64,000 nucleotides of DNA. Origin: TPA_inf: Saccharomyces (Eukaryota). The first letter of the stretch is position 1. Every line of letters starts with the position of its first letter. The stretch covers positions 384,001-448,000 of the forward strand of contig BK006936.2 in NCBI GenBank assembly GCA_000146045.2, in the 5' to 3' direction. Shown piece by piece: positions 2,286-46,951 of this stretch. Under the pieces are notes generated by a model that saw only the letters and a list, made by a program, of their open reading frames with translations, was not told where the DNA came from and made no database searches. The position numbers and the translations under genes were made by a program.

Positions 2286-5216
2286 ATGAAATTAAAAAGT
2301 GTATTCAGATCAGTTCTAAAGTACCGGAAAACAAATTTGAGTTTGCTTCTATTAATCACCTATTCGATTATTACGTTACTCTATATCTTTGATCATGAAC
2401 GTTATAAACTCAATCTACCAAAAGAGGATGAGCACCCTGAATTCAATGACTTATTAGAAACAGCATGGGGGGACTTACAGATTATCACGGCCTCTTTTCA
2501 TCCGTACACGTCCAAAGAAAATGATAAAGTACATGATTACTTGCTCAAAAGGGTTCTTGAAATTACAGGGAATTCTTCGTTTGCAAGTGTTTCAGATGAC
2601 AAAGAAAGCGAGAGATCCATATTATTTCAGCAACAAGATCCTTTCAATGAGTCATCTAGGTTTTCGAGAGTGACATATTTTGAATCTTCTAATATATTAG
2701 TTAAGCTTGAGGGTAAAAATCCTGAGGAAGAAGGGTTACTTCTTTCAGCTCATTTCGACTCTGTACCCACAGGATATGGAGCTACCGATGACGGCATGGG
2801 TGTAGTGTCTTTACTAGCGAACCTCAAGTACCATATAAAGCACAGACCGAACAGGACTTTAATTTTCAACTTTAATAATAATGAAGAGTTTGGCCTACTA
2901 GGTGCATCAACTTATTTTGATCACTCATGGTCTAATTTAACCAAGTATGTGATAAATTTAGAGGGAACTGGTGCTGGTGGTAAAGCTGTACTGTTCCGAA
3001 CTTCAGATACTTCAACAGCAAGAATATACCAACAGTCTGTTAAGGAAAATCCATTTGGTAACTCTATCTACCAGCAAGGTTTTTATAGCAGATATGTCAG
3101 GAGTGAGACAGACTACAAGATTTACGAAGAAAATGGCATGAGAGGCTGGGATGTCGCATTCTACAAACCGAGAAACCTTTATCATACCATAAAGGATTCA
3201 ATACAATATACCTCCAAGGCATCTTTATGGCATATGCTACATACTTCCTTACAATTAAGTGCATATGTGGCTTCTAATTCATTGGATACAGCTGACCAAA
3301 CGCCGGCTTGTTATTTTGATTTTATCGGTTTGAAGTTTTTCGTTATAAGCGCTAAAACGCTTTTCTATTGGAACTGCATATTTCTATTAGTTTCACCCGT
3401 TGTGGCCATTGGCTTGTATTTAATTTCTCGTGATAGAATGACTTGGAAATCTTATTCATGGCTATCGTGGACACGCTTTCCTCTTTCATTAGCCGCTGGT
3501 ATTATTGTCCAAAAGCTTTTCTCTAACGACATAATTCGTTCCAATCCTTTGACGTTCTCAAGGAACTACTTTTGGCCTATCTCGGCTTTTTTCACTCAAG
3601 TAATTTTTACCAGTTATGTTCTGATTAATTGCTCCAATTTTTTTTTCCCCTGTGCCGATATGAAAAGCCTATCAATTATCGAATTGTTCATTATTTTATG
3701 GACCATTTTACTTTTTACGTCGAAGTTATTGTATAGTTCCGACTATAGGTATACCGGGCTTTATCCTCTCTCGATTTTCTTTCTTCTGAGCACAATAGCT
3801 GCTATATTGAGACTACTTGCACTAGCGTTGGGAATGAGAACAAGGAAGAGGCTTGGTAGAGAATGTAGGGACCATCACTCCAATTACAGCTCCCATTCTC
3901 AAATAGATATGGAACGAGACGGTCAGGAAAACTTGGAACAACCCCAAGATCAACTTACATCGTCACAAGACGATCAAGCAAGTATCCAAGATGATAATGT
4001 GTCAACTACTTCAGCTGGCCCATCACATAATGTTGACGAGGATCATGGTATGGATTCATCGTCACAACAACATGATGAAAGGGTACCATTACTGAAGGGG
4101 TCTAATAGCATGGAGGAAGGATTGAGTACTAGAGAAAATTCTCTAAAACTTGAGTATACCGATTATGCCTGGATCATTCAATTTTTGCTAATTGTACCAA
4201 TACCATCATTTATTTTGTTTAACAGTGTGGATGTTATCATGGACGCACTAAACCATACTGTCCAGGAAGGAAGTAAGGCTACATTTGATGTACTCAGGTT
4301 CGGAATGGTGGGCAGTATTTTGATCGCGCTACCAATTTTACCTTTTTTCTATAAGGTCAACTATATCACAATTTCTTTAACTGCACTGCTTTTCTTGATT
4401 TCCGCATCCAAAACGCTCCTAGTGCACCCCTTTACCAATAGTAACCCATTAAAAGTAAGGTTTTCTCAAAATATTGATTTGTCTCAAGGGAACGCTGCCA
4501 GTGTACATGTCCTTGGAAGAGAAGGAAATTTTTTAAAACCTATGCTGCAAGATTTACCAAGTATAAAATATAGCTCTACACATATTAACTGTACTTCCGT
4601 AACCAATGGAATGGAACTTTGTATGTATGATGGAATGCAACCTAATTTATTGAGCACGAATGGAAATACGAACATCAGCAGTATGGTCAAGGTTCATGTT
4701 TTACATAATAACCGAAACTCAACAGAGAGATCTCCTTACGAACCAATAGTTGCAGAGTTACTTTTGGAGGTGAAGGAGAACAGGGCTTGCACTTTAACTT
4801 TTGAAAGTAGACATCAGGCGAAGTCACCTGTCAGAGAAATCACGGTATATCAAAAGAAAAATTCGGCCCCACAGAAAGCTAATATCACGAAGACGATCAA
4901 GTCTGCTTCTGGCATAAACGAACTGCAATTGCATAAACTTGATTTCGATCAGGAAACTTACCATATCGGAGTCCAGTGGTTTCCAAAACTTTTGACGGAT
5001 GGAAATGTAGAGGATGACAAGTTGGGGACAAAAGACGAACTGTCTGTTTCTATTAGCTGTTATTGGGGAGAATATGATTCGGAATCGGTTGTAAATGGTA
5101 CCGCTGTTAGGAAAATTCCAGCATTTGATGAATTGATAAATTACGCACCTCTAAGTTTTTCCTTTACCAACGAACAGAAAGGATTAGTTATTGTCAAGGA
5201 TGCTATAATTTTATAA
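2286..5216 (+). CDS. PFF1: Vacuolar membrane M28-family metalloprotease, 976 aa, multi-TM
   Basis: ATG at 2286. It has an M28 peptidase core (HFDSV...GATDDGMG...NNEEFGLLGA) and a long hydrophobic multi-pass region. Size and neighbours match YBR074W. Confidence 0.85.
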   Translation: MKLKSVFRSVLKYRKTNLSLLLLITYSIITLLYIFDHERYKLNLPKEDEHPEFNDLLETAWGDLQIITASFHPYTSKENDKVHDYLLKRVLEITGNSSFASVSDDKESERSILFQQQDPFNESSRFSRVTYFESSNILVKLEGKNPEEEGLLLSAHFDSVPTGYGATDDGMGVVSLLANLKYHIKHRPNRTLIFNFNNNEEFGLLGASTYFDHSWSNLTKYVINLEGTGAGGKAVLFRTSDTSTARIYQQSVKENPFGNSIYQQGFYSRYVRSETDYKIYEENGMRGWDVAFYKPRNLYHTIKDSIQYTSKASLWHMLHTSLQLSAYVASNSLDTADQTPACYFDFIGLKFFVISAKTLFYWNCIFLLVSPVVAIGLYLISRDRMTWKSYSWLSWTRFPLSLAAGIIVQKLFSNDIIRSNPLTFSRNYFWPISAFFTQVIFTSYVLINCSNFFFPCADMKSLSIIELFIILWTILLFTSKLLYSSDYRYTGLYPLSIFFLLSTIAAILRLLALALGMRTRKRLGRECRDHHSNYSSHSQIDMERDGQENLEQPQDQLTSSQDDQASIQDDNVSTTSAGPSHNVDEDHGMDSSSQQHDERVPLLKGSNSMEEGLSTRENSLKLEYTDYAWIIQFLLIVPIPSFILFNSVDVIMDALNHTVQEGSKATFDVLRFGMVGSILIALPILPFFYKVNYITISLTALLFLISASKTLLVHPFTNSNPLKVRFSQNIDLSQGNAASVHVLGREGNFLKPMLQDLPSIKYSSTHINCTSVTNGMELCMYDGMQPNLLSTNGNTNISSMVKVHVLHNNRNSTERSPYEPIVAELLLEVKENRACTLTFESRHQAKSPVREITVYQKKNSAPQKANITKTIKSASGINELQLHKLDFDQETYHIGVQWFPKLLTDGNVEDDKLGTKDELSVSISCYWGEYDSESVVNGTAVRKIPAFDELINYAPLSFSFTNEQKGLVIVKDAIIL

Positions 5217-9510: not shown

Positions 9511-10742
9511 CTAACTCAACTACTTCTATTCCATCTTCATGTAGTATTGGTACTTCTGCCACTGCTACTGCTCAAGCTGATTTGGACAAAATCTCCGGTT
9601 GTAGTACCATTGTTGGTAACTTGACCATCACCGGTGACTTGGGTTCCGCTGCTTTGGCTAGTATCCAAGAGATTGATGGTTCCTTGACTATCTTCAACTC
9701 CAGTTCTTTATCTTCTTTCTCCGCTGACTCTATCAAGAAAATCACCGGTGATTTGAACATGCAAGAATTGATCATTTTGACCAGTGCTTCTTTCGGTTCT
9801 TTGCAAGAAGTAGACTCCATTAACATGGTGACTTTGCCTGCCATTTCTACCTTCTCCACCGATTTACAAAATGCTAACAACATTATTGTTTCTGACACCA
9901 CTTTGGAAAGTGTCGAAGGTTTCTCCACTTTGAAGAAGGTTAATGTTTTTAACATCAACAACAACAGATATCTAAACTCTTTCCAATCTTCCTTGGAAAG
10001 TGTCTCTGACTCTTTACAATTCTCTTCCAACGGTGACAACACTACTTTGGCCTTCGACAATTTGGTCTGGGCTAACAACATCACTTTGAGAGATGTTAAC
10101 TCTATTTCTTTCGGTAGTTTGCAAACTGTTAACGCTTCCTTAGGTTTCATTAACAACACTTTGCCAAGTTTGAACTTGACCCAATTGAGCAAGGTTGGTC
10201 AATCTTTGTCTATCGTCTCCAACGATGAATTATCCAAGGCCGCTTTCAGTAACTTGACTACTGTTGGTGGTGGTTTCATCATTGCTAACAACACACAATT
10301 GAAGGTCATTGACGGTTTTAACAAGGTTCAAACTGTTGGTGGTGCCATTGAAGTTACTGGTAACTTCTCAACCTTGGACTTATCTTCTTTGAAGTCTGTT
10401 AGAGGTGGTGCTAACTTCGACTCTTCTTCCAGTAACTTCTCCTGTAACGCTTTGAAGAAGTTGCAAAGTAACGGTGCTATTCAAGGTGACTCTTTTGTTT
10501 GCAAGAACGGTGCCACATCTACCTCCGTTAAGCTATCCTCTACTTCTACTGAATCATCCAAGAGCTCTGCTACATCTTCCGCTTCTTCTAGTGGTGATGC
10601 CTCCAATGCTCAAGCTAACGTTTCAGCTTCCGCTAGCTCTTCTTCCTCTTCTTCTAAGAAGTCTAAGGGTGCTGCTCCAGAACTTGTTCCAGCCACTTCA
10701 TTCATGGGTGTCGTTGCTGCTGTTGGCGTTGCCTTACTATAA
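9511..10742 (+). CDS. ECM33: ECM33 exon 2; GPI-anchored cell-wall/plasma-membrane protein (Sps2 family), Ser-rich C-terminus with hydrophobic GPI signal
   Basis: Continues the frame of ORF 9582..10742. It has a Ser/Thr-rich stalk and a C-terminal hydrophobic tail (GAAPELVPATSFMGVVAAVGVALL). Confidence 0.9.
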
Positions 10743-17252: not shown

Positions 17253-20200
17253 TTATTGATTAAGGCGAGGAAGGCTCAAGCTAAATGAACTATTGCTGCC
17301 CATATTGGTATCATCAAAAGCATCATCCATATCCAAAGGATCTAAAGGTTGAGGCGTTCGCAAAAATAAGGAAGAATCTCCATCATTTTCTGCACCCACT
17401 TTGGCGTTTACAGTTGTTGTTGGATCCGCTTTTACGTCGTTTTCCAAGTCTTCTTCTGGAAGTATAAACGCGCTTGCGATCGGTTTCTTTTTGTATGTGG
17501 TACTTATCTTACCAGTAGGAGGTAATCTTGCCTTCGTTGCGGTTTTCTTTGAGACAAACTGATCCTCTTCTAGTAAAGCGAAAGAATTGTCTTCTGTGGA
17601 AGTCATTGAGGTTTTATCATTTGCAGATGACTTGCTTTGCTTTGCTATATAGGCCTTGGAACGTTCATAATCTTTTTGTAATAGGGGAAGTAGAGTATTC
17701 CAGAATGAACCAGCATCCAGCATACCTTTTGTAATTTTCTTATACACAATGCTGTCTGATTCTTCCGGTTGGATCTTTTTGGCCTGCACTTTGGTTTCCC
17801 CGTCAACAGTTTGAAACTGAGTAGTCAGTAACTGTAATGGAACAGATGAACTCAAAACTCCAAACTCCTTTTCTAATCCAAGCTCTCTAAAACCAAAGAA
17901 GTCTTCACCAGTCAATTCGCTGGCAAAGTCACCTGTAAAAAAGCTTTGGCTCTCGTCTTCAAAGTTTCTCTCGGACAACTCCTGCAAAGTTGGCCTTAAT
18001 AAGGCTCTCAAAAAGCTTTCTAGTTTCTGTTTGATGTCCTGAAGTTTCTTAGTTTTTTTACCAAATTCAGATTCAACATAGGAAAATAGATCGTCTGGCC
18101 TGTTGATACCGTTTTCCAACAGTGTTGTTTGCAGCATTTCCACATTTGTTCCTCTATTTAAGGAGTTAGTTTCATGATGAAGCTTCAAAGTCTTTATCAG
18201 ATTAGATAGGTAATCCCCGGCGATTTCAGTAAGCATGTTTATTGCTGATGGATGGGCAGTTTCAAACCCATTGGCCATAGCAACCTTAGATATGTTCTTA
18301 TGCATGAATTTCCATATCAGCTCCCTGTTGTTTTTGTAATCATGCGTTGGAAGCTGTGACACCGGATCAATATCGAGTGAGTCATCAATAATAGTGTAAT
18401 TATAAATGTGGTTGTTAAGGAAAGCGTTGGGATTGCTTCTGGAGTTTTGAGCCGATAAAGGGCTCTGTAACATTCTGATCAGGGATATTTTATGGCATAT
18501 GTGCCTAATTTGCTGAATCAGTGTGATATTTTGGTTCATTTTAGGTGTTAGTCCTAAATCCTTGTTAGCCAGAAATCTGCTTTGTTTGTTGATACCATTT
18601 TGAAGCATGCGGTCCACGGAAGCGTCTTCCATCTTGTCTAATGTTTTAGTATTTACTCCCTCGTATACTATGTCAGGAATGGCGTTACTAATATCATATT
18701 CCTGTAGGAATCTGGTATCATCTAACTCAATATCATTGGGTTGCTTTTCAAAAGCTTCATTTCCATTTAAAGAGTGATCATTATGAAACTGCAATTGGTC
18801 ATCGTCTTCCTGTTTTAGTACTGTTCCAAAGCCATTTTTCATAATGGAATTTTGCTCTATTTTTTGACGATATGATTCTAAAGCTTTCTGCTCTTTATAT
18901 TCAAGAAAAAGCTGGTCGAACCTTTTCATTCTTTGTGGGTTTTTCAAAAACGCCTCTGAATCACTATTTAATTTTCCATTTTTAAAATATTCAGTTCTTT
19001 TTAAGCAAATTTCCGCACGAACTTTGGCAGTTACAGTTTTCCACACGGATATTTCCAAATCGTCTCTATCGTCATCCTTTTCAAGTAAATAAGATTGGGA
19101 GTCGACCATGTCTTCGTCTTCATCTTCGTCATCATCATCCTCTTCCTCTTCATTATTTTCCCCAGCCTCCTTATTTTCTGCAGTTTTATCTTGTAGTCCG
19201 TCTTCCGTATCCTTTTTGGCAGCATCAGCATCTTTTGATGAATCCTCAGTCTTACTACTTTCCTCAACCATATCTTGCTCTTCATTTTTCCCATTTTCTT
19301 TTATTTCGTTCTTATTTACATTTTCGTGTACCGTTACAGTAGATGAAGCAGTTTTATCTTTCTCTTTTTCCCCCTCAGGGATGACAGAAGTTAGTTTGTC
19401 ATCATTGGTTGGTGCTTCATCCTTGACGGTTTTAGAGCTATCTTTTTCTGACACCTTGCCATTCTCTTTGGCCAACATATGAGCTCCCATATTCAATCCT
19501 TTTCTTCCAGAACCAGCAACTTCCTCTTCCTCATCTAATTCGTAGTCTTTGTCTTTTTCCATATCTTCAATTTCCTTTTCTAAATCAGCCCTGTTTCGGA
19601 TTGTGATATTTGGAATCATGCGAATCAACTGAAGAGATTTCTTCTGCATAGCAATAGCATGCCCTCTCAAAAAATGTGAAGGATCTGAATTATAGGTCAA
19701 ACAATTTTTCCATATTAGCATAATATCGTCTACAAATTCTTGTTTGGAGTCATATTGAAAGCTTTTCAGTTTTTTTAAAACAGTATTCAGGTCCATGGAC
19801 TTTTTGATGATTTGATGATAATTGGGGGCTTCTCTTTTGCTCACTTTATTCAGAAATGGTGTAGAATGCTCAGTGTAGTTTCTAAGTTCCAAAACAACCT
19901 TTTCACAGGCTTCGTATAATTCCTCTTGCCCAATTCTTTCATCCGATGTCCATTTTGACCGATTTTTTCTGACATCCATAATCAGATGTTTTAATTCGTA
20001 ATCTGATATTCCTAATTGGGATTTTTTTTGCTGGATAGATGATAGAAGGTGCTTTAATGATAAATTTTCGATGCCTAGATTGACTGTTAAATCTAAATTA
20101 CTTTGTTTGGGGCGCTTGTTCCCAGTATCGCTGAATGTTGAACCTTCAGGAGTGGGCAATTTTTGATTAGTATCTGGCTCATCATTTGTATTTTCGCGAT

Positions 20201-21251
20201 CTTGTTCATCGGTAGCTGCTTCTAAATCACTTCGACTTCGTTTCTTCTTTCCTTTCTCTATCATTTTATCGCTTTCTTCAAGTTTTAATCGCTTTATCAT
20301 AGTTTCTTTATCGTATTCAAAACTGTGGTAAATTTTGTTCCAATTTCCCATAATTTCTTCTACATTATTTGTTTTTAACTTTGACAGTGTTTCTTTTGAT
20401 ATTGAGATATTTAGCACCAAGCGTCGTTCATCGTCAATTTCGATATTAGAAGAGGAAATAGAATCGAGATTTTTTGGAGGATCATCGACATTTTTTACGT
20501 CTGTACTGTCTTCATCATAGTTCTCGTCTTCATCGTCGTAATCTTCATCCTCGGCGAACTTCGAAATACCTTCTTTGTTTTGTGGCTTCTCATTTTTACC
20601 AATTTCCTCTTCCTCCTTCTCTTCAACATCTAATAGGGTGTATTCTGTATCATTTTCATCACCAAACTCATTACGATCACAGTATATATAATCTATGGCG
20701 CACTGCCACAAGACGTATCTGATTTTCAAGGATAAGTTTCCAATAAACCTTGTTCCGCTTATTTGCTGCTTCAAGTCCTCTAGATCTAATTTGAATAAGT
20801 CTTCTTCAACATTATCACTTTCGTCATTATTCACAAAATTATCTTCATTTGCTATTGCGTTATCGCCTTTATCTTCAATTTCATTTTCAACATGATTTTC
20901 ATTGCTGATACTGGTGTTGGTATTAGTATTGTTATTGTCCTTAATTGTTTGTGATGATACATCATCTGATCGTGTGTCAACGGCAGGAGAGACCGCTCCG
21001 TGATGTTCTTCTTCTTGGGTTAATGGAAATGATTTTTCGACATTTAATGCTATGTTTCCCTTTAAGAAATAGTCCCATGCTTTCAGTTTGTCTTCTTCAC
21101 TTGAAATCGACAGCAGGTATTCAAGAACGACCAATTGCTGAGAGGTTAAATAGAGATCAAAAAAGTTCTTGTTAAAAAGTTTTTCAGTCAATTTAAGTAA
21201 AGCTTTGGCATTTGTTCTTTGATAATTCTTTATTGGTATTCTTTCAGTCAT
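17253..21251 (-). CDS. SPT7: SAGA complex subunit with bromodomain, 1332 aa
   Basis: 1332-aa ORF with ATG at 21251. It has a bromodomain segment (...LNTVLKKLKSFQYDSKQEFVDDIMLIWKNCLTYNSDPSHFLRGHAIAMQKK...) and long acidic D/E tracts (YBR081C). Confidence 0.92.
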   Translation of the reverse strand: MTERIPIKNYQRTNAKALLKLTEKLFNKNFFDLYLTSQQLVVLEYLLSISSEEDKLKAWDYFLKGNIALNVEKSFPLTQEEEHHGAVSPAVDTRSDDVSSQTIKDNNNTNTNTSISNENHVENEIEDKGDNAIANEDNFVNNDESDNVEEDLFKLDLEDLKQQISGTRFIGNLSLKIRYVLWQCAIDYIYCDRNEFGDENDTEYTLLDVEEKEEEEIGKNEKPQNKEGISKFAEDEDYDDEDENYDEDSTDVKNVDDPPKNLDSISSSNIEIDDERRLVLNISISKETLSKLKTNNVEEIMGNWNKIYHSFEYDKETMIKRLKLEESDKMIEKGKKKRSRSDLEAATDEQDRENTNDEPDTNQKLPTPEGSTFSDTGNKRPKQSNLDLTVNLGIENLSLKHLLSSIQQKKSQLGISDYELKHLIMDVRKNRSKWTSDERIGQEELYEACEKVVLELRNYTEHSTPFLNKVSKREAPNYHQIIKKSMDLNTVLKKLKSFQYDSKQEFVDDIMLIWKNCLTYNSDPSHFLRGHAIAMQKKSLQLIRMIPNITIRNRADLEKEIEDMEKDKDYELDEEEEVAGSGRKGLNMGAHMLAKENGKVSEKDSSKTVKDEAPTNDDKLTSVIPEGEKEKDKTASSTVTVHENVNKNEIKENGKNEEQDMVEESSKTEDSSKDADAAKKDTEDGLQDKTAENKEAGENNEEEEDDDDEDEDEDMVDSQSYLLEKDDDRDDLEISVWKTVTAKVRAEICLKRTEYFKNGKLNSDSEAFLKNPQRMKRFDQLFLEYKEQKALESYRQKIEQNSIMKNGFGTVLKQEDDDQLQFHNDHSLNGNEAFEKQPNDIELDDTRFLQEYDISNAIPDIVYEGVNTKTLDKMEDASVDRMLQNGINKQSRFLANKDLGLTPKMNQNITLIQQIRHICHKISLIRMLQSPLSAQNSRSNPNAFLNNHIYNYTIIDDSLDIDPVSQLPTHDYKNNRELIWKFMHKNISKVAMANGFETAHPSAINMLTEIAGDYLSNLIKTLKLHHETNSLNRGTNVEMLQTTLLENGINRPDDLFSYVESEFGKKTKKLQDIKQKLESFLRALLRPTLQELSERNFEDESQSFFTGDFASELTGEDFFGFRELGLEKEFGVLSSSVPLQLLTTQFQTVDGETKVQAKKIQPEESDSIVYKKITKGMLDAGSFWNTLLPLLQKDYERSKAYIAKQSKSSANDKTSMTSTEDNSFALLEEDQFVSKKTATKARLPPTGKISTTYKKKPIASAFILPEEDLENDVKADPTTTVNAKVGAENDGDSSLFLRTPQPLDPLDMDDAFDDTNMGSNSSFSLSLPRLNQ

Positions 21252-21877
21252 TATTCAGACTTAATTTCTTTGTAGTGTTACAGTTTAAAGAGTAACCAAC
21301 AATTTTCACTGATCCGAAGTTCAATCTGAAAAAAGGAAAGATCTTATTGTTTGACTTGCTAAATAAATAAAAGATGTATTTTGCCAACTTCTCCAATGAT
21401 CTTTTTTCCTTTGTACATCTAACATAATTGAAGACTTACGAGTGTACATTCACTTTTCATTACTTGGATCTGAAATATTAGAAAGTTACCCGTACCATCA
21501 AGAATATAATCGCAGCCCTAATAATTATTCACTGGAGTTAGTCCCAACAAGCATTCCTGTAGAGATTTATTTCAGTTAAAGCTGGCCAGCATTTGACCAA
21601 TTTTCCTATATGTACAATAAAAGAGCATAAGGTTTCAGTGGGGTATTTTACCTTTAAAAAAATTTCGTCTTTATTCTAAAAAGCCAATTGAAATATGCTA
21701 ACTTTCATTTAATATATCCTTGCATTGGTATTTATACAGATATATTACAGATATAAGTCTTTAATACAAGCCGACACCAAAAACAAATGAATTGTCATAC
21801 AAGAATAATACTGGAAGCACATCCATCTTTAGAGGAAACATGTTTTCGTTATTTCATAAAACCTTCAACAAATAGTA

Positions 21878-21949
21878 GCTCGCGTGGCGTAATGGCAACG
21901 CGTCTGACTTCTAATCAGAAGATTATGGGTTCGACCCCCATCGTGAGTG
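21878..21949 (+). tRNA. tRNA-Arg (anticodon UCU), 72 nt, no intron
   Basis: GCTCGCGTGGCGTAATGGCAACGCGTCTGACTTCTAATCAGAAG...TTCGACCCCCATCGTGAGTG. The anticodon loop CTTCTAA carries TCT; A-box (TGGCGTAATGG) and B-box (GGTTCGACCCC) are present. Confidence 0.93.
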
Positions 21950-21959
21950 CTTTGTTTCT

Positions 21960-22031
21960 TCCGTGATAGTTTAATGGTCAGAATGGGCGCTTGTCGCGTG
22001 CCAGATCGGGGTTCAATTCCCCGTCGCGGAG
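21960..22031 (+). tRNA. tRNA-Asp (anticodon GUC), 72 nt, second member of the Arg-Asp dicistronic pair
   Basis: TCCGTGATAGTTTAATGGTCAGAATGGGCGCTTGTCGCGTGCCAGATCGGGGTTCAATTCCCCGTCGCGGAG. Anticodon GTC; it starts 10 nt after the end of tRNA-Arg. Confidence 0.93.
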
Positions 22032-22032
22032 A

Positions 22033-22039
22033 TTTTTTT
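22033..22039 (+). terminator. RNA polymerase III terminator (T7 run) immediately after tRNA-Asp
   Basis: GGAG|ATTTTTTTG: seven T residues directly downstream of the tRNA-Asp 3' end. No T-run lies between the two tRNAs. Confidence 0.85.
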
Positions 22040-22627
22040 GGCTACTCCTGCAGTTATTCTTCTGCCTCCTTAGTACAGTGTAATGCTCCTCAGAATTTTT
22101 GCCAAACAGAGAACCAGTCATTGATCGTTGATTACATATACTAGCTATGCGTTGAACTTCAAAAATTTAAATAGGCTTCACCCCAGAAATGATGTTAATG
22201 ACAATAGTAATTAACCTACAGATAGACTAGAAATGAAAAAGGTACGGTTAACGTTGACGCTCCCTCGACAAGTTAGGTCAAATATGAACCACAACTGAAA
22301 TATATGCGGGATATACCCGCGCTTGCGTGCATGTAACTAAGCAAAAATTCTCCATACTGTTCGAGGAAAAAAATGTTCATGAATCTCCCCTGAATAAATT
22401 AAATTAAGGTTTACGATTCGAGTTGTTTGGAAAAAAAAAAAAAGGTTCCCCTGTACTGTTGCCAACAATAGTCTTATATCTTATATCAGTAAATCTATGT
22501 TATTAGAGATAGAATATACATATATTTTATTGTATTCTTTCTTAAATACATTGTATCTAATATTCTTTTCATCGTCCAATCCCATATAAATCTTGCTTCT
22601 CTTTTTCAGCTGAGTAAGGACTTCTGT

Positions 22628-23122
<495 letters not shown>

Positions 23123-23169
23123 CTTTCTAGATCACTTAGTTCTTTAGCAATACGTTTAGAAGAAGACAT
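23123..23169 (-). CDS. UBC4: UBC4 exon 1 (MSSSKRIAKELSDLE + AG)
   Basis: Minus-strand ATG at 23169..23167: ATGTCTTCTTCTAAACGTATTGCTAAAGAACTAAGTGATCTAGAAAG|GTATGT. Confidence 0.9.
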
Positions 23170-40989: not shown

Positions 40990-41766
40990 TTATTCTTCGT
41001 CATTAAATTTAGGAGCCAAGAAAAACTGTAGGAACCCACTCTTCAAATCAAATTGGAATAAAGCAGGAGCTTCGCTGGAGAGCCTGATACCAACTCTATC
41101 AGAAAGGGAGGAGCCCTTAATGATGTCCAATAAATATTTAGCTCCGAACGTCAAGTCGACAGGTTGATCCATTTCAAGTTTGATGCTTGTTTCAGGATGT
41201 TCCATATCCACGAATGGTTTTATTATGACTGAACCTGATCCGATATCACCGTCAGCTACAAACTTTATTGTTTCTTTGGTGATCATGATATTAATAGAAT
41301 CACTCAATTGGGACAAGTCACGAACAATTTTAGAGAATTCGGAAGATGGCAATGACAGGGTGGAGTCGTACTGTAATTCTTCAATCTTTAAGAAATCAGC
41401 ATCGATATCCATCAATTTCAGAGAGTATTCGGCTATACGGTCTTTCTTGGTATCCTCAAATAATAAGATGATGGAATCCGGTGTGTTGTCAGCAATTAGT
41501 GTTAATGTATCGGTGTTGTTACCACAACGTAGGATTTTACTTAGTGAGGTTAGATCCATACCTAACGTAACAGGATGGTCACATCTATATTCTTGGAAGG
41601 CTTCGACACCTATTTCCAAGGAGACCAATAGAACTCTTGAGTCATCGACAGCTTGTGCAATGATACCATCTTCTTTACATTGGAAATTGACCAACTGGAC
41701 ACAATCTTTGAAACCATCAATTATTCTCTTGAAAAGGGATGCTTCTTCAAATTTTGCTTCTAACAT
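40990..41766 (-). CDS. POL30: PCNA sliding clamp, 258 aa
   Basis: MLEAKFEEASLFKRIIDGFKDCVQLVNFQCKEDGIIAQAVDDSRVLLVSLEIG... is unmistakably PCNA. ATG at 41766. Confidence 0.95.
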   Translation of the reverse strand: MLEAKFEEASLFKRIIDGFKDCVQLVNFQCKEDGIIAQAVDDSRVLLVSLEIGVEAFQEYRCDHPVTLGMDLTSLSKILRCGNNTDTLTLIADNTPDSIILLFEDTKKDRIAEYSLKLMDIDADFLKIEELQYDSTLSLPSSEFSKIVRDLSQLSDSINIMITKETIKFVADGDIGSGSVIIKPFVDMEHPETSIKLEMDQPVDLTFGAKYLLDIIKGSSLSDRVGIRLSSEAPALFQFDLKSGFLQFFLAPKFNDEE

Positions 41767-43697: not shown

Positions 43698-45101
43698 TTA
43701 TTGTTTTAATAGGGTATCGTTGTAGTGAGTAGTATTCCAGTCCCAGTAGAAGGTCAATTCGGTGACGTTACTGACACTGCTGACGTTACAGACCTTTAGG
43801 AAGTCAGTACCAGCTACTCTCTTTTCAGCATAGTCGTAGAAATCATTGATTTCACAAGAGAACCCTGGGCCGGTGGAACAGGTTTCAATTGGAACGACAG
43901 CATCGTTAATGACGTATCTGACGTAGGTGTCGTTAGAACATTGGAATTTTTCGGTGTAGACACGAGCACCTTGAGGAACGTACCAGGACTTATGGAAGGT
44001 GTTGCCCATGAATGGAACGTATTCGGCAGTTAAGTTGTTTTTGTCGTCAATTATACCAGCGGTGGTCAAATAGTTTAGGATATCGGTATCGTGGGTAAAA
44101 CTCAACCAGACTTTTAAGTCTTGAGTTTCACTTTGCTTTAACAACTTCAAAGTAGCGTTAAACAAGTTGGCACCGACGGATCTGATCATATCATAACCTG
44201 GTCCATCCTGGTAAAACGATACCAGGTCCTGGCCGTATGAGTAACGTACCAATTCATCTTCGGTGAAGATATCACAAACATCACTGTAGCCTCTAGCGTT
44301 CAATTCGTATGCACACCATGCAAACAAAGTGTTGGCGTCCTTTGAGGTCAAATTCAAACCCTTGTTTTCTTTGTTTAATCTCTTGGCAATGTCATCCAAG
44401 TATGTGGTATCGTATTTGTCCAAAATGTCATCGTTAGCATCTTCATCCCATCCTGGGCACGCATTACCAGCACTCAAAGTGTTTGCGCCGGCGGACATGG
44501 CTTCACTGACAGTCTGCAAGGAGATGTTGAATTGGTCACCTAAACCATCAATGAAATATTGAGCAGTGTCATGAACCCTTTCAGAACTAGCGGCGAAAAT
44601 TGGGAAACTGGTTTGATTTTCGAACATGTAGCCATATTGCGCTAAAAACTCACGAGCATGTCTCTTAGCATCCATCTCACCAGTGTATGGATTCAAAACA
44701 TTGTCTGAGTTGGCAAAAGTGGTTTCCATTTCCAAATCATCGTCATCACGGATGAAAAACTCGTAATCATCGTTCAAGAATGACAATGAGCCGTTGAATT
44801 GACGTGTGTAATTGCTCAACTTATACCATGTTTTCATGATGGTAGCACCTTTACTGTAAGTTGGGTATCTTTCACCATGTCTGGCAAGCATTTGCAATTG
44901 TTTCATTTCACAACCTTCAGGCAAGTCACGAGAAATACCATAGTCGCCAGGGAAAGAGAAGTATGGCCCGGCACCACCCAGGAATGGGAATATGTCTTCC
45001 TGAGTGCCAATTTTGGCAACATCGGCTAACTCTCCGAGGGGAATTGTACCTGCATTAACTAAAGCAGCGGCTAGAACCGAATAAACAACAGACTTAAACA
45101 T
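43698..45101 (-). CDS. PHO3: Constitutive (thiamine-repressible) secreted acid phosphatase, 467 aa
   Basis: Signal peptide MFKSVVYSVLAAALVNA and the histidine acid phosphatase motif (LARHGERYP). It is the downstream copy of the tandem pair, ~87% identical to PHO5 (YBR092C). Confidence 0.9.
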   Translation of the reverse strand: MFKSVVYSVLAAALVNAGTIPLGELADVAKIGTQEDIFPFLGGAGPYFSFPGDYGISRDLPEGCEMKQLQMLARHGERYPTYSKGATIMKTWYKLSNYTRQFNGSLSFLNDDYEFFIRDDDDLEMETTFANSDNVLNPYTGEMDAKRHAREFLAQYGYMFENQTSFPIFAASSERVHDTAQYFIDGLGDQFNISLQTVSEAMSAGANTLSAGNACPGWDEDANDDILDKYDTTYLDDIAKRLNKENKGLNLTSKDANTLFAWCAYELNARGYSDVCDIFTEDELVRYSYGQDLVSFYQDGPGYDMIRSVGANLFNATLKLLKQSETQDLKVWLSFTHDTDILNYLTTAGIIDDKNNLTAEYVPFMGNTFHKSWYVPQGARVYTEKFQCSNDTYVRYVINDAVVPIETCSTGPGFSCEINDFYDYAEKRVAGTDFLKVCNVSSVSNVTELTFYWDWNTTHYNDTLLKQ

Positions 45102-45547: not shown

Positions 45548-46951
45548 CTATTGTCTCAATAGACTGGCGTTGTAATGAGTAGTGTTCCAGTCCCAGTAGA
45601 AGGTCAATTCAGTAGAGTTACTGACGCTGCTGACGTTACAGACCTTTAGGAAGTCAGTACCGGCTACTCTCTTTTCAGCATAGTCGTAGAAGTCATTGAT
45701 TTCACAAGAGAACCCTGGACCAGTGGAACAGGTTTCAATTGGAACAACAGCATCGTTAATGACGTATCTGACGTAGGTGTCGTTAGAACATTGGAATTTT
45801 TCGGTGTAGACACGAGCACCTTGAGGAACGTACCAGGATCTGTGGAAAGTGTTGCCCATGAATGGAACGTATTCGGCAGTTAAGTTGTTTTTGTCGTCAA
45901 TTATACCAGCGGTGGTCAAAAAGTTTAGGATATCGGTATCGTGGGTAAAACTCAACCAAACCTTTTGGTCTTGAATCTCACTTTGCTTTAATAATTTGAC
46001 TGAGGCATTGAACAAGTTGGAACCGACAGACTTGATAATGTCGTAACCTGGACCCTCATGGTAATAAGTGTGCAAGTCTTGGTAGTAGGAGTAATGGACT
46101 AATTCATCCTTGGTGAAAATATCACAGACATCACTGTAACCTTTAGCGTTCACTTCAAATGCACACCACGAGAATAAAGTACTAGCGTCAGTTGAGGTCA
46201 AGTTCAAACCCTTGTTTTCCTTGTTCAATCTCTTGGCAATGTCATCCAAGTAGGTTGTGTCGTATTCATTTACAATGTCATCATTGGCATCGTAGTCCCA
46301 AGCAGGACATGAGTTACAAGCACTCAAAGTGTTGGCACCAGCGGATTCAGCTTCACTGACAGTCTGCAAGGTGATGTTGAATTGGTCACCTAAACCATCA
46401 ATGAAATATTGAGCAGTGTCATGACATCTCTTAGAATTAGAGGTAAAAACGGCGAAACTGGTTTGGTTTTCGACCATGTAACCGTATTGAGCCAAGAAGT
46501 CACGAGCATGTCTCTTGGCGTTCATTTCACCAGTGTATGGGTTCAAAACATCGTCCGAGTTGGCAAAAGTGGTTTCCATTTCCAAATCATCGTCATCACG
46601 GATGAAAAACTCGTAATCATCGTTCAAGAATGACAATGAGCCGTTGAATTGACGAGTGTAATTGCTCAACTTATACCATGTACTCTTGATAGTCTTAGCC
46701 AGACTGACAGTAGGGTATCTTTCACCATGTCTACCAACCATTTGCAGTTGCTTCATTTCACAACCTTCAGGCAAATCACGAGAAATACCATAGTCGCCAG
46801 GGAAAGAGTAGTATGGTCCGGCACCACCCAAAAATGGGAAGATATCTTTTTGGGTACCAATCTTGTCGACATCGGCTAGTTTGCCTAAGGGAATGGTACC
46901 TGCATTGGCCAAAGAAGCGGCTAAAATTGAATAAACAACAGATTTAAACAT
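45548..46951 (-). CDS. PHO5: Phosphate-repressible secreted acid phosphatase, 467 aa
   Basis: Signal peptide MFKSVVYSILAASLANA and the RHGERYP motif. It is the upstream copy, carrying the canonical PHO5 promoter (UASp1, UASp2, TATA) at the known distances from the ATG. Confidence 0.93.
   Translation of the reverse strand: MFKSVVYSILAASLANAGTIPLGKLADVDKIGTQKDIFPFLGGAGPYYSFPGDYGISRDLPEGCEMKQLQMVGRHGERYPTVSLAKTIKSTWYKLSNYTRQFNGSLSFLNDDYEFFIRDDDDLEMETTFANSDDVLNPYTGEMNAKRHARDFLAQYGYMVENQTSFAVFTSNSKRCHDTAQYFIDGLGDQFNITLQTVSEAESAGANTLSACNSCPAWDYDANDDIVNEYDTTYLDDIAKRLNKENKGLNLTSTDASTLFSWCAFEVNAKGYSDVCDIFTKDELVHYSYYQDLHTYYHEGPGYDIIKSVGSNLFNASVKLLKQSEIQDQKVWLSFTHDTDILNFLTTAGIIDDKNNLTAEYVPFMGNTFHRSWYVPQGARVYTEKFQCSNDTYVRYVINDAVVPIETCSTGPGFSCEINDFYDYAEKRVAGTDFLKVCNVSSVSNSTELTFYWDWNTTHYNASLLRQ

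Follow-up and report, generated by a model that had tools for sequence, protein, structure and literature searches.

Features of the locus

The stretch of DNA analysed here, referred to throughout as the window, is 64,000 nucleotides (64 kb) in length. Two complete tRNA genes lie head-to-tail on its + strand, a tRNA-Arg(UCU) gene at 21878-21949 (72 nt, including the discriminator G) and a tRNA-Asp(GUC) gene at 21960-22031 (also 72 nt), each detected with both ARAGORN and Rfam. They are separated by a U-rich spacer of 10 nt, CTTTGTTTCT, at 21950-21959 on the same strand. In the 64 kb, ARAGORN made just two tRNA calls, one for Arg(tct) (21878-21950) and one for Asp(gtc) (21959-22032), each on the + strand. 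The full Rfam model RF00005 was covered in each gene, with scores of 67.5 bits for tRNA-Arg and 56.3 bits for tRNA-Asp (gathering score 29), and it is on the 72-nt Rfam boundaries, discriminator base included, that the spacer limits given here rest. The initial annotation had described two complete head-to-tail tRNA genes with a 10-nt spacer, and that description was exact to the base when set against the ARAGORN and Rfam results.

Runs of at least four T residues within 21800-22100 were confined to a TTTT at 21843-21846, which is upstream of the unit, a T7 at 22033-22039 and a T5 at 22096-22100. None was found inside the unit (21878-22031), and the longest T-run of the spacer is 3. The T7 on the + strand, separated from the end of tRNA-Asp by one A, is the sole Pol III terminator of the unit. 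The T-run scan thus bears out the earlier statement that the spacer contains no run of four or more T residues and that a single T7 follows tRNA-Asp.

The internal promoter elements of both genes were located by pattern matching on the + strand, using published patterns (A box, TRGYnnAnnnG; B box, GWTCRAnnC; PMC2566860). The A and B boxes of tRNA-Arg are TGGCGTAATGG (21885-21895) and GTTCGACCC (21929-21937), and those of tRNA-Asp are TAGTTTAATGG (21967-21977) and GTTCAATTC (22011-22019). Upstream of tRNA-Arg on the same strand, an A+T-rich, TATA-like stretch, TTATTTCATAAAA, was read from the sequence at 21849-21861 (positions -29 to -17 of tRNA-Arg), and the 5' leader, or start-site region, CAACAAATAGTA, occupies the 12 nt at 21866-21877. 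A scan for bacterial-type promoters and terminators, which is irrelevant to a Pol III gene, gave nothing above shuffle level.

Chromosomal neighbourhood and identity

The tRNA unit is flanked by two protein-coding genes on the - strand. SPT7 (17253-21251) is divergent from it, with a start codon 626 bp upstream of tRNA-Arg; its ORF of 1332 aa matched S. cerevisiae Spt7 (chain 6t9i_K) end to end, with a score of 2923 bits. UBC4 (22628-23169) is convergent with the unit. Two exons were read from the sequence, 22628-23027 and 23123-23169, separated by an intron of 95 nt, and a UQ_con gene was called at the matching position in L005. Yeast PCNA (POL30) was recognized by an ORF match at 40990-41766 on the - strand, and the farther neighbours include a TEA-domain protein (TEC1), C1-tetrahydrofolate synthase (MIS1), eIF3a (RPG1) and an NSF-type AAA ATPase (SEC18). 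Twin histidine acid phosphatase genes (His_Phos_2) of 467 aa, 87% identical to each other, are found on the - strand at 43698-45101 and 45548-46951; this tandem is consistent with PHO3 and PHO5.

The window was 99.98-100% identical to S. cerevisiae assemblies; for two of them, in which the Spt7 protein is likewise encoded, identity over 12 kb was 99.98-99.99%. We take the gene set SPT7/UBC4/TEC1/POL30 to be that of the right arm of S288C chromosome II, hence the copy name 'B'. Since its neighbours place the window on S. cerevisiae chromosome II, the tRNA pair is tR(UCU)B/tD(GUC)B, one of four genomic Arg-Asp tandems. [quoted passage not shown] All of the features tested (gene order, anticodons, linker, terminator, neighbours and spacer probe) matched tR(UCU)B/tD(GUC)B; no difference was found, and the unit in the window is that locus. 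The pair had been described beforehand as a classic known case, which agrees with the sequence and with four published accounts (PMC6673722, PMC2615624, PMC12129344, PMC2566860).

The four copies in S. cerevisiae

Metagenome contigs were scanned with a junction pattern in which the gap was free to vary from 1 to 30 nt. Four loci were returned, and the gap was 10 nt in all four. One of them (L002) is the chromosome II locus in another strain, with 99.36% identity over 13.7 kb; the three paralogous tandems account for the others (L001, L003 and L004). It is apparent that tRNA-Arg, tRNA-Asp and the spacer are identical in the four paralogues, all of which have a T7-T8 terminator. The 12-nt leader, CAACAAA(T/C)AGTA, is conserved in all four as well, and is almost unchanged in S. 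paradoxus and S. uvarum. Four tR(UCU)-tD(GUC) tandems (B, D, J1/J2 and J2/J3) have been reported, expressed as dimeric transcripts (PMC6673722). The initial annotation had called such an arrangement rare in budding yeast. The term has to be qualified: there are four of these pairs in S. cerevisiae alone (PMC6673722), and for other hemiascomycetes tandem tDNAs have been described as quite common (PMC2566860).

The chromosome IV copy, L004, resembles the window beyond the tRNA genes. A UBC4 paralogue (the UBC5 side; 91% protein identity) follows the tandem at L004 5731-6063, and an ECM33 paralogue (63% protein identity) precedes it at L004 24-1358, the counterpart in the window being at 9582-10742. 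The order and orientation of the ECM33-like and UBC4 paralogues are alike in L004 and in the window.

A different relationship was observed for L003. The immediate flanks of the chromosome II tandem (21857-21877 and 22032-22062, i.e. 21 nt upstream and 31 nt downstream) are 99% identical to L003 7439-7644, and are unlike those of the orthologue in S. paradoxus (L008 4176-4413). This near-identity to L003, combined with the dissimilarity to the orthologue, suggests a tract of approximately 206 bp of ectopic gene conversion or recent duplication between the chromosome II and L003 copies.

Ty LTR sequences

LTR queries for Ty1/Ty2 delta and Ty3 sigma gave no match better than E=0.06 in the 64-kb window. 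As a positive control, the same queries detected remnants at L003 3975-4491 and 7126-7179, with E values down to 2e-15. The SPT7-UBC4 intergenic region (21254-22622) is, moreover, colinear with that of S. paradoxus over 1390 alignment columns (77% identity, 47 gap positions), which leaves no room for an LTR-sized insert. An LTR-associated tRNA locus has a delta, sigma or tau element within about 1 kb, and none was present at the chromosome II pair as judged by the delta and sigma queries. The initial annotation's statement that no Ty LTR accompanies the pair is upheld by the null queries in the window, which covered the delta and sigma elements, and by the colinearity with S. paradoxus. An LTR remnant at the chromosome II pair was rejected on these same two grounds.

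The surroundings of the L003 copy (contig ERZ794936.151) are of another kind. Delta/sigma LTR remnants lie beside a tRNA-Val(AAC) gene at L003 3600-4491, and a further remnant, at L003 7126-7179, is located 5' to the tRNA-Arg of this copy, at a distance of about 280 bp; the copy in the window is without any.

The same site in other yeasts

Syntenic regions were fetched from other yeasts by way of their Spt7 orthologues. An Arg-Asp tandem was present in five of these species. The spacer is 9 nt in S. paradoxus (L008; CTTTGTTCT) and 12 nt in S. uvarum (L009; TTATTTTCCTTA), each pair being followed by a T8, and it is 19 nt in T. phaffii (L015) and 13 nt in T. globosa (L014), each pair being followed by a T7. 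In Z. rouxii (L010) the spacer is 15 nt, and the pair is followed by a T5 at +6 and then a T8. Two species have tRNA-Arg(UCU) only, L. lanzarotensis (L012) at 4256-4327, followed by TTTTTAATTTTTTT, and E. gossypii (L013) at 4753-4824, followed by CTTTTTTT. These lone genes have their own oligo(dT) terminator directly 3', and no tRNA-Asp. The UBC4-SPT7 adjacency is kept in S. ludwigii (L016) and C. dubliniensis (L017), with no tRNA gene at the site. Synteny is lost in K. lactis (L011), where the UBC4 neighbour is gone, and in W. ciferrii (L018), again with no tRNA gene. The juxtaposition of tRNA-Arg and tRNA-Asp is far beyond chance, since an identical unit occurs at three more paralogous loci and five other species have the tandem at the syntenic site.

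The spacers of the Arg-Asp tandems range from 9 to 19 nt, and their longest T-run is 4, in S. uvarum, never reaching T5. In S. uvarum, the T4 in the spacer might lead to a small amount of premature termination. A T7-T8 run lies 2-3 nt after tRNA-Asp in eight of the nine tandem loci, Z. rouxii being the exception. In this comparison the spacer is free in both sequence and length, the only evident constraints being that it is short and that it contains no terminator.

The nine tandem loci together provide 377 cloverleaf cells, and standard pairs are formed in 100% of them. There are four compensatory double changes, two in each tRNA, a number not reached in any of 500 shuffles or in any slid control. 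Complete pairing and compensatory change together argue that the tRNA-Arg and tRNA-Asp products are both under purifying selection. These results bear directly on the idea that tRNA-Asp is a silent passenger or pseudogene, brought next to tRNA-Arg by a neutral duplication accident. About a dozen stand-alone copies of tD(GUC) are present in S. cerevisiae. The existence of tD(GUC) genes outside the four tandems (PMC6673722) would make the tandem copy dispensable in principle. Nevertheless, tRNA-Asp forms a perfect cloverleaf with no degenerate positions, and its two compensatory changes, in the acceptor and anticodon stems, have kept 100% of the pairing. Furthermore, six species retain the tandem at the syntenic site, it is present in both of the duplicated blocks discussed below, and the terminator always stands after tRNA-Asp and never before it. 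A silent tRNA-Asp is, on this evidence, scarcely credible.

Several other observations were made in the course of the comparison. The tRNA-Arg(UCU) genes of S. uvarum (L009 4329-4400) and Z. rouxii (L010 4509-4580) end in ...GAGC-T, giving a G1-C72 pair and a discriminator U, and those of S. cerevisiae, S. paradoxus, T. globosa and T. phaffii end in ...GAGT-G, giving G1.U72 and a discriminator G; a change at position 72 is accompanied by one at the discriminator. UBC4 and the tandem are approximately 1.7 kb apart in S. uvarum (L009 2539-4245), compared with approximately 0.6 kb in both S. cerevisiae and S. paradoxus. The S. uvarum interval aligns to the window at its ends only, and the extra 1.1 kb or so contains no match to the S. 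cerevisiae LTR queries.

A Candida margitis SPT7 gene model (P0094) contains a UQ_con domain in addition to a bromodomain, and is probably a gene-model fusion of adjacent UBC4 and SPT7. The UBC4-SPT7 adjacency reaches the CTG-clade yeasts (P0094, and also C. dubliniensis L017). In addition, a SNORD18 (snR18-type) box C/D snoRNA was found inside the EF-1-beta gene of Torulaspora globosa (L014 13238-13322), presumably in an intron.

Transcription of the unit

The base composition of the -40 to -15 zone differs between the two genes, with an A+T content of 73% upstream of tRNA-Arg versus 46% upstream of tRNA-Asp. Over all nine tandem loci the corresponding values are 65-81% for tRNA-Arg and 35-50% for tRNA-Asp. 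The zone upstream of tRNA-Asp is made up of the T-arm and acceptor end of tRNA-Arg, and neither a TATA-like nor a CAACAA element was found in it at any of the nine loci. The A+T-rich stretch at 21849-21861 is a putative TFIIIB-binding zone for the unit as a whole. Initiation would be expected at an A within CAACAA, judging from the known start-site consensus of yeast tRNA genes.

It had been claimed that the downstream gene must be transcribed as part of a dimer from the tRNA-Arg A and B boxes. The claim itself is supported by the sequence and by the literature; the 'must', drawn from the missing T-run alone, is too strong. A spacer without a terminator accounts for read-through into tRNA-Asp, but does not by itself exclude a second start, since tRNA-Asp keeps consensus A and B boxes. 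The argument against independent initiation at tRNA-Asp is rather that its TFIIIB zone falls inside the G+C-rich T-arm of tRNA-Arg. A dimeric precursor was reportedly described by Schmidt et al. in 1980, and mutational proof of coordinate dependence on the tRNA-Arg promoter is said to have been provided by Reyes, Newman and Abelson in 1986.

Published data also locate the promoter activity of such pairs. Ty3 integrates at Pol III start sites, and its insertions lie overwhelmingly at the start of the upstream tR(UCU), with far fewer at the paired tD(GUC) genes; the Brf1/Rpc34 signal is likewise concentrated on the upstream gene of the pairs (PMC6673722). Transcription of tandem tDNAs has been considered to rest on the upstream promoter, TFIIIB assembly on the G+C-rich upstream gene being penalized (PMC2566860). 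The primary transcript is approximately 170 nt in length (PMC12129344). A precursor of about 155 nt had been predicted in the initial annotation, which is too short, as the two tRNAs and the spacer, with neither leader nor U-tail, amount to 154 nt.

The alternative is that the two genes are independent, with the A and B boxes of tRNA-Asp directing most of its transcription, from a start in the spacer or at the end of tRNA-Arg, and with tRNA-Arg transcripts merely reading through. The intact boxes of tRNA-Asp are in keeping with this, as is the sequence of tRNA-Asp, which does not differ among the four S. cerevisiae tandems and hardly varies from species to species, as expected for TFIIIC binding. 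Against it, the zone upstream of tRNA-Asp is G+C-rich at nine of nine loci (35-50% A+T), and spacers of 9-19 nt, whatever the species, could not accommodate a separate start-site region. The preference of Ty3 for the tR(UCU) start over that of tD(GUC) (PMC6673722) and the assignment of transcription to the upstream promoter in a review (PMC2566860) point the same way. Finally, a precursor of approximately 170 nt and a tRNA-Arg intermediate of approximately 90 nt are seen on northern blots, accumulating in pop1-1 (PMC12129344). Independence of the two genes is thus very improbable, although minor internal initiation at tRNA-Asp may occur. This alternative was rejected, as was that of a tRNA-Asp pseudogene.

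The unit is almost certainly a dicistronic Pol III unit that is driven by tRNA-Arg, ends in one terminator after tRNA-Asp and is separated by processing, and the arrangement is ancient. According to this model, TFIIIC would bind the A and B boxes of tRNA-Arg, and TFIIIB would assemble on the A+T-rich flank approximately 30 bp upstream of that gene. Pol III would start in the CAACAA leader, some 10 nt before tRNA-Arg, read through the 10-nt spacer, with no run of more than three T residues, and then through tRNA-Asp, and terminate in the T7 at 22033-22039, yielding a dimeric precursor of approximately 170 nt. The A and B boxes of tRNA-Asp, though kept, would not recruit TFIIIB productively, because the zone upstream of them is the G+C-rich tRNA-Arg gene, itself occupied by TFIIIC. 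Co-transcription and processing rest on the literature; the expression of this particular chromosome II copy is what we infer, the literature being unable to separate four identical loci.

Processing of the dimeric precursor

The order of processing events has been established in published work. [quoted passage not shown] The dimeric precursor accumulates in pop1-1, and 3'-extended tRNA-Arg in rex1-delta (PMC12129344). A 10-nt U-rich linker, endonucleolytic separation and trimming by Rex1 were also reported in PMC2615624, and the role of Rex1 is cited in PMC3866640. Release of the two tRNAs had been attributed in the initial annotation to RNase P and RNase Z. The first of these enzymes stands, and the second is to be replaced by Rex1 (PMC12129344, PMC2615624, PMC3866640).

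Applied to the window, this scheme predicts that RNase P would remove the tRNA-Arg leader after separation, and that the spacer would be the 3' trailer of the tRNA-Arg intermediate, to be trimmed by Rex1. The U-tail of tRNA-Asp would be trimmed and CCA added. The minimum free energy of a 173-nt precursor was -54.1 kcal/mol (z = -1.47), versus -44.5 for two cloverleaves, so that the minimum-energy fold is not the double cloverleaf. A non-cloverleaf minimum of this kind is usual for unmodified tRNA sequences and is silent on processing.

Age and origin of the tandem

Gene order in yeasts without a duplicated genome provides evidence regarding the age of the pair. The order in Z. rouxii and L. 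lanzarotensis is MAK21-UBC4-[tRNA]-SPT7-YOS9-EMC10-SEC18, and T. globosa shares the order from MAK21 to EMC10. This ancestral-type order, from MAK21 to SEC18, interleaves the chromosome II and chromosome IV neighbourhoods of S. cerevisiae. Such a merged order in non-duplicated yeasts means that the chromosome II and chromosome IV tandems are sister copies from the whole-genome duplication, the pair having been retained in both blocks. By the same reasoning from gene order, the Arg-Asp tandem predates the yeast whole-genome duplication. The tandem is kept at the UBC4-SPT7 site from Zygosaccharomyces and Torulaspora to Saccharomyces.

The species with a lone tRNA-Arg offer an indication of how the pair may have originated. 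In Lachancea and Eremothecium this gene is followed by T5AAT7 or CT7, and the S. cerevisiae spacer, CTTTGTTTCT, resembles an interrupted oligo(dT) run (compare CTTTTTTTGTTCT in E. gossypii). The spacer might thus be the eroded terminator of a once monocistronic tRNA-Arg, next to which tRNA-Asp was captured in the ancestor of Zygosaccharomyces/Torulaspora and the post-duplication yeasts, the terminator decaying afterwards. We regard this as a tentative reading, quite possible but somewhat short of probable. If true, it would mean that tRNA-Asp became locked into dependence on tRNA-Arg, and such dependence would account for the pair having remained intact, in both of the duplicated copies too, for more than 100 My. 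With the species sampled here, the reverse polarity is just as parsimonious: an ancestral tandem from which tRNA-Asp was lost in the Kluyveromyces/Lachancea/Eremothecium clade. The K. lactis, S. ludwigii, C. dubliniensis and W. ciferrii loci are of no help in ordering the gain or loss of tRNA-Asp.

Relation to known systems and significance

The dimeric tRNASer-tRNAMet genes of S. pombe are similar to the unit described here in that a close pair is transcribed from the internal promoter of the upstream gene, one transcript giving rise to two tRNAs (PMC2566860); an allele of the tRNASer-tRNAMet type has been used as a read-through reporter (PMC4982682). The S. pombe genes differ, however, in the identities of the tRNAs and in lineage, and are therefore of independent origin. 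Other hemiascomycete tandem tDNAs share with the Arg-Asp unit a terminator after the second gene only, and their spacers are as short as 3 nt (PMC2566860). Debaryomyces hansenii has 17 such tandems, and pair types are shared between neighbouring genomes (PMC2566860), in contrast to S. cerevisiae, which has only one pair type, in four copies (PMC6673722). Units in which a leader tRNA precedes a non-tRNA gene are comparable as well: the tRNA supplies the Pol III promoter, the downstream RNA is 4-17 nt away and the only terminator is at the end (PMC2566860). The unit in the window is unlike these in yielding two tRNAs, separable by RNase P alone.

The tRNA-Arg/tRNA-Asp dicistronic unit is already well known, and the comparative dating presented here is a new but modest addition. 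The locus is a standard model substrate for Pol III read-through, for the order of RNase P cleavage and for 3' trimming by Rex1, and its correct identification avoids mistaking a known unit for a new one. The comparison leaves the understanding of mechanism unchanged; what it does is to date a eukaryotic Pol III 'operon' and to suggest a plausible way in which it arose.
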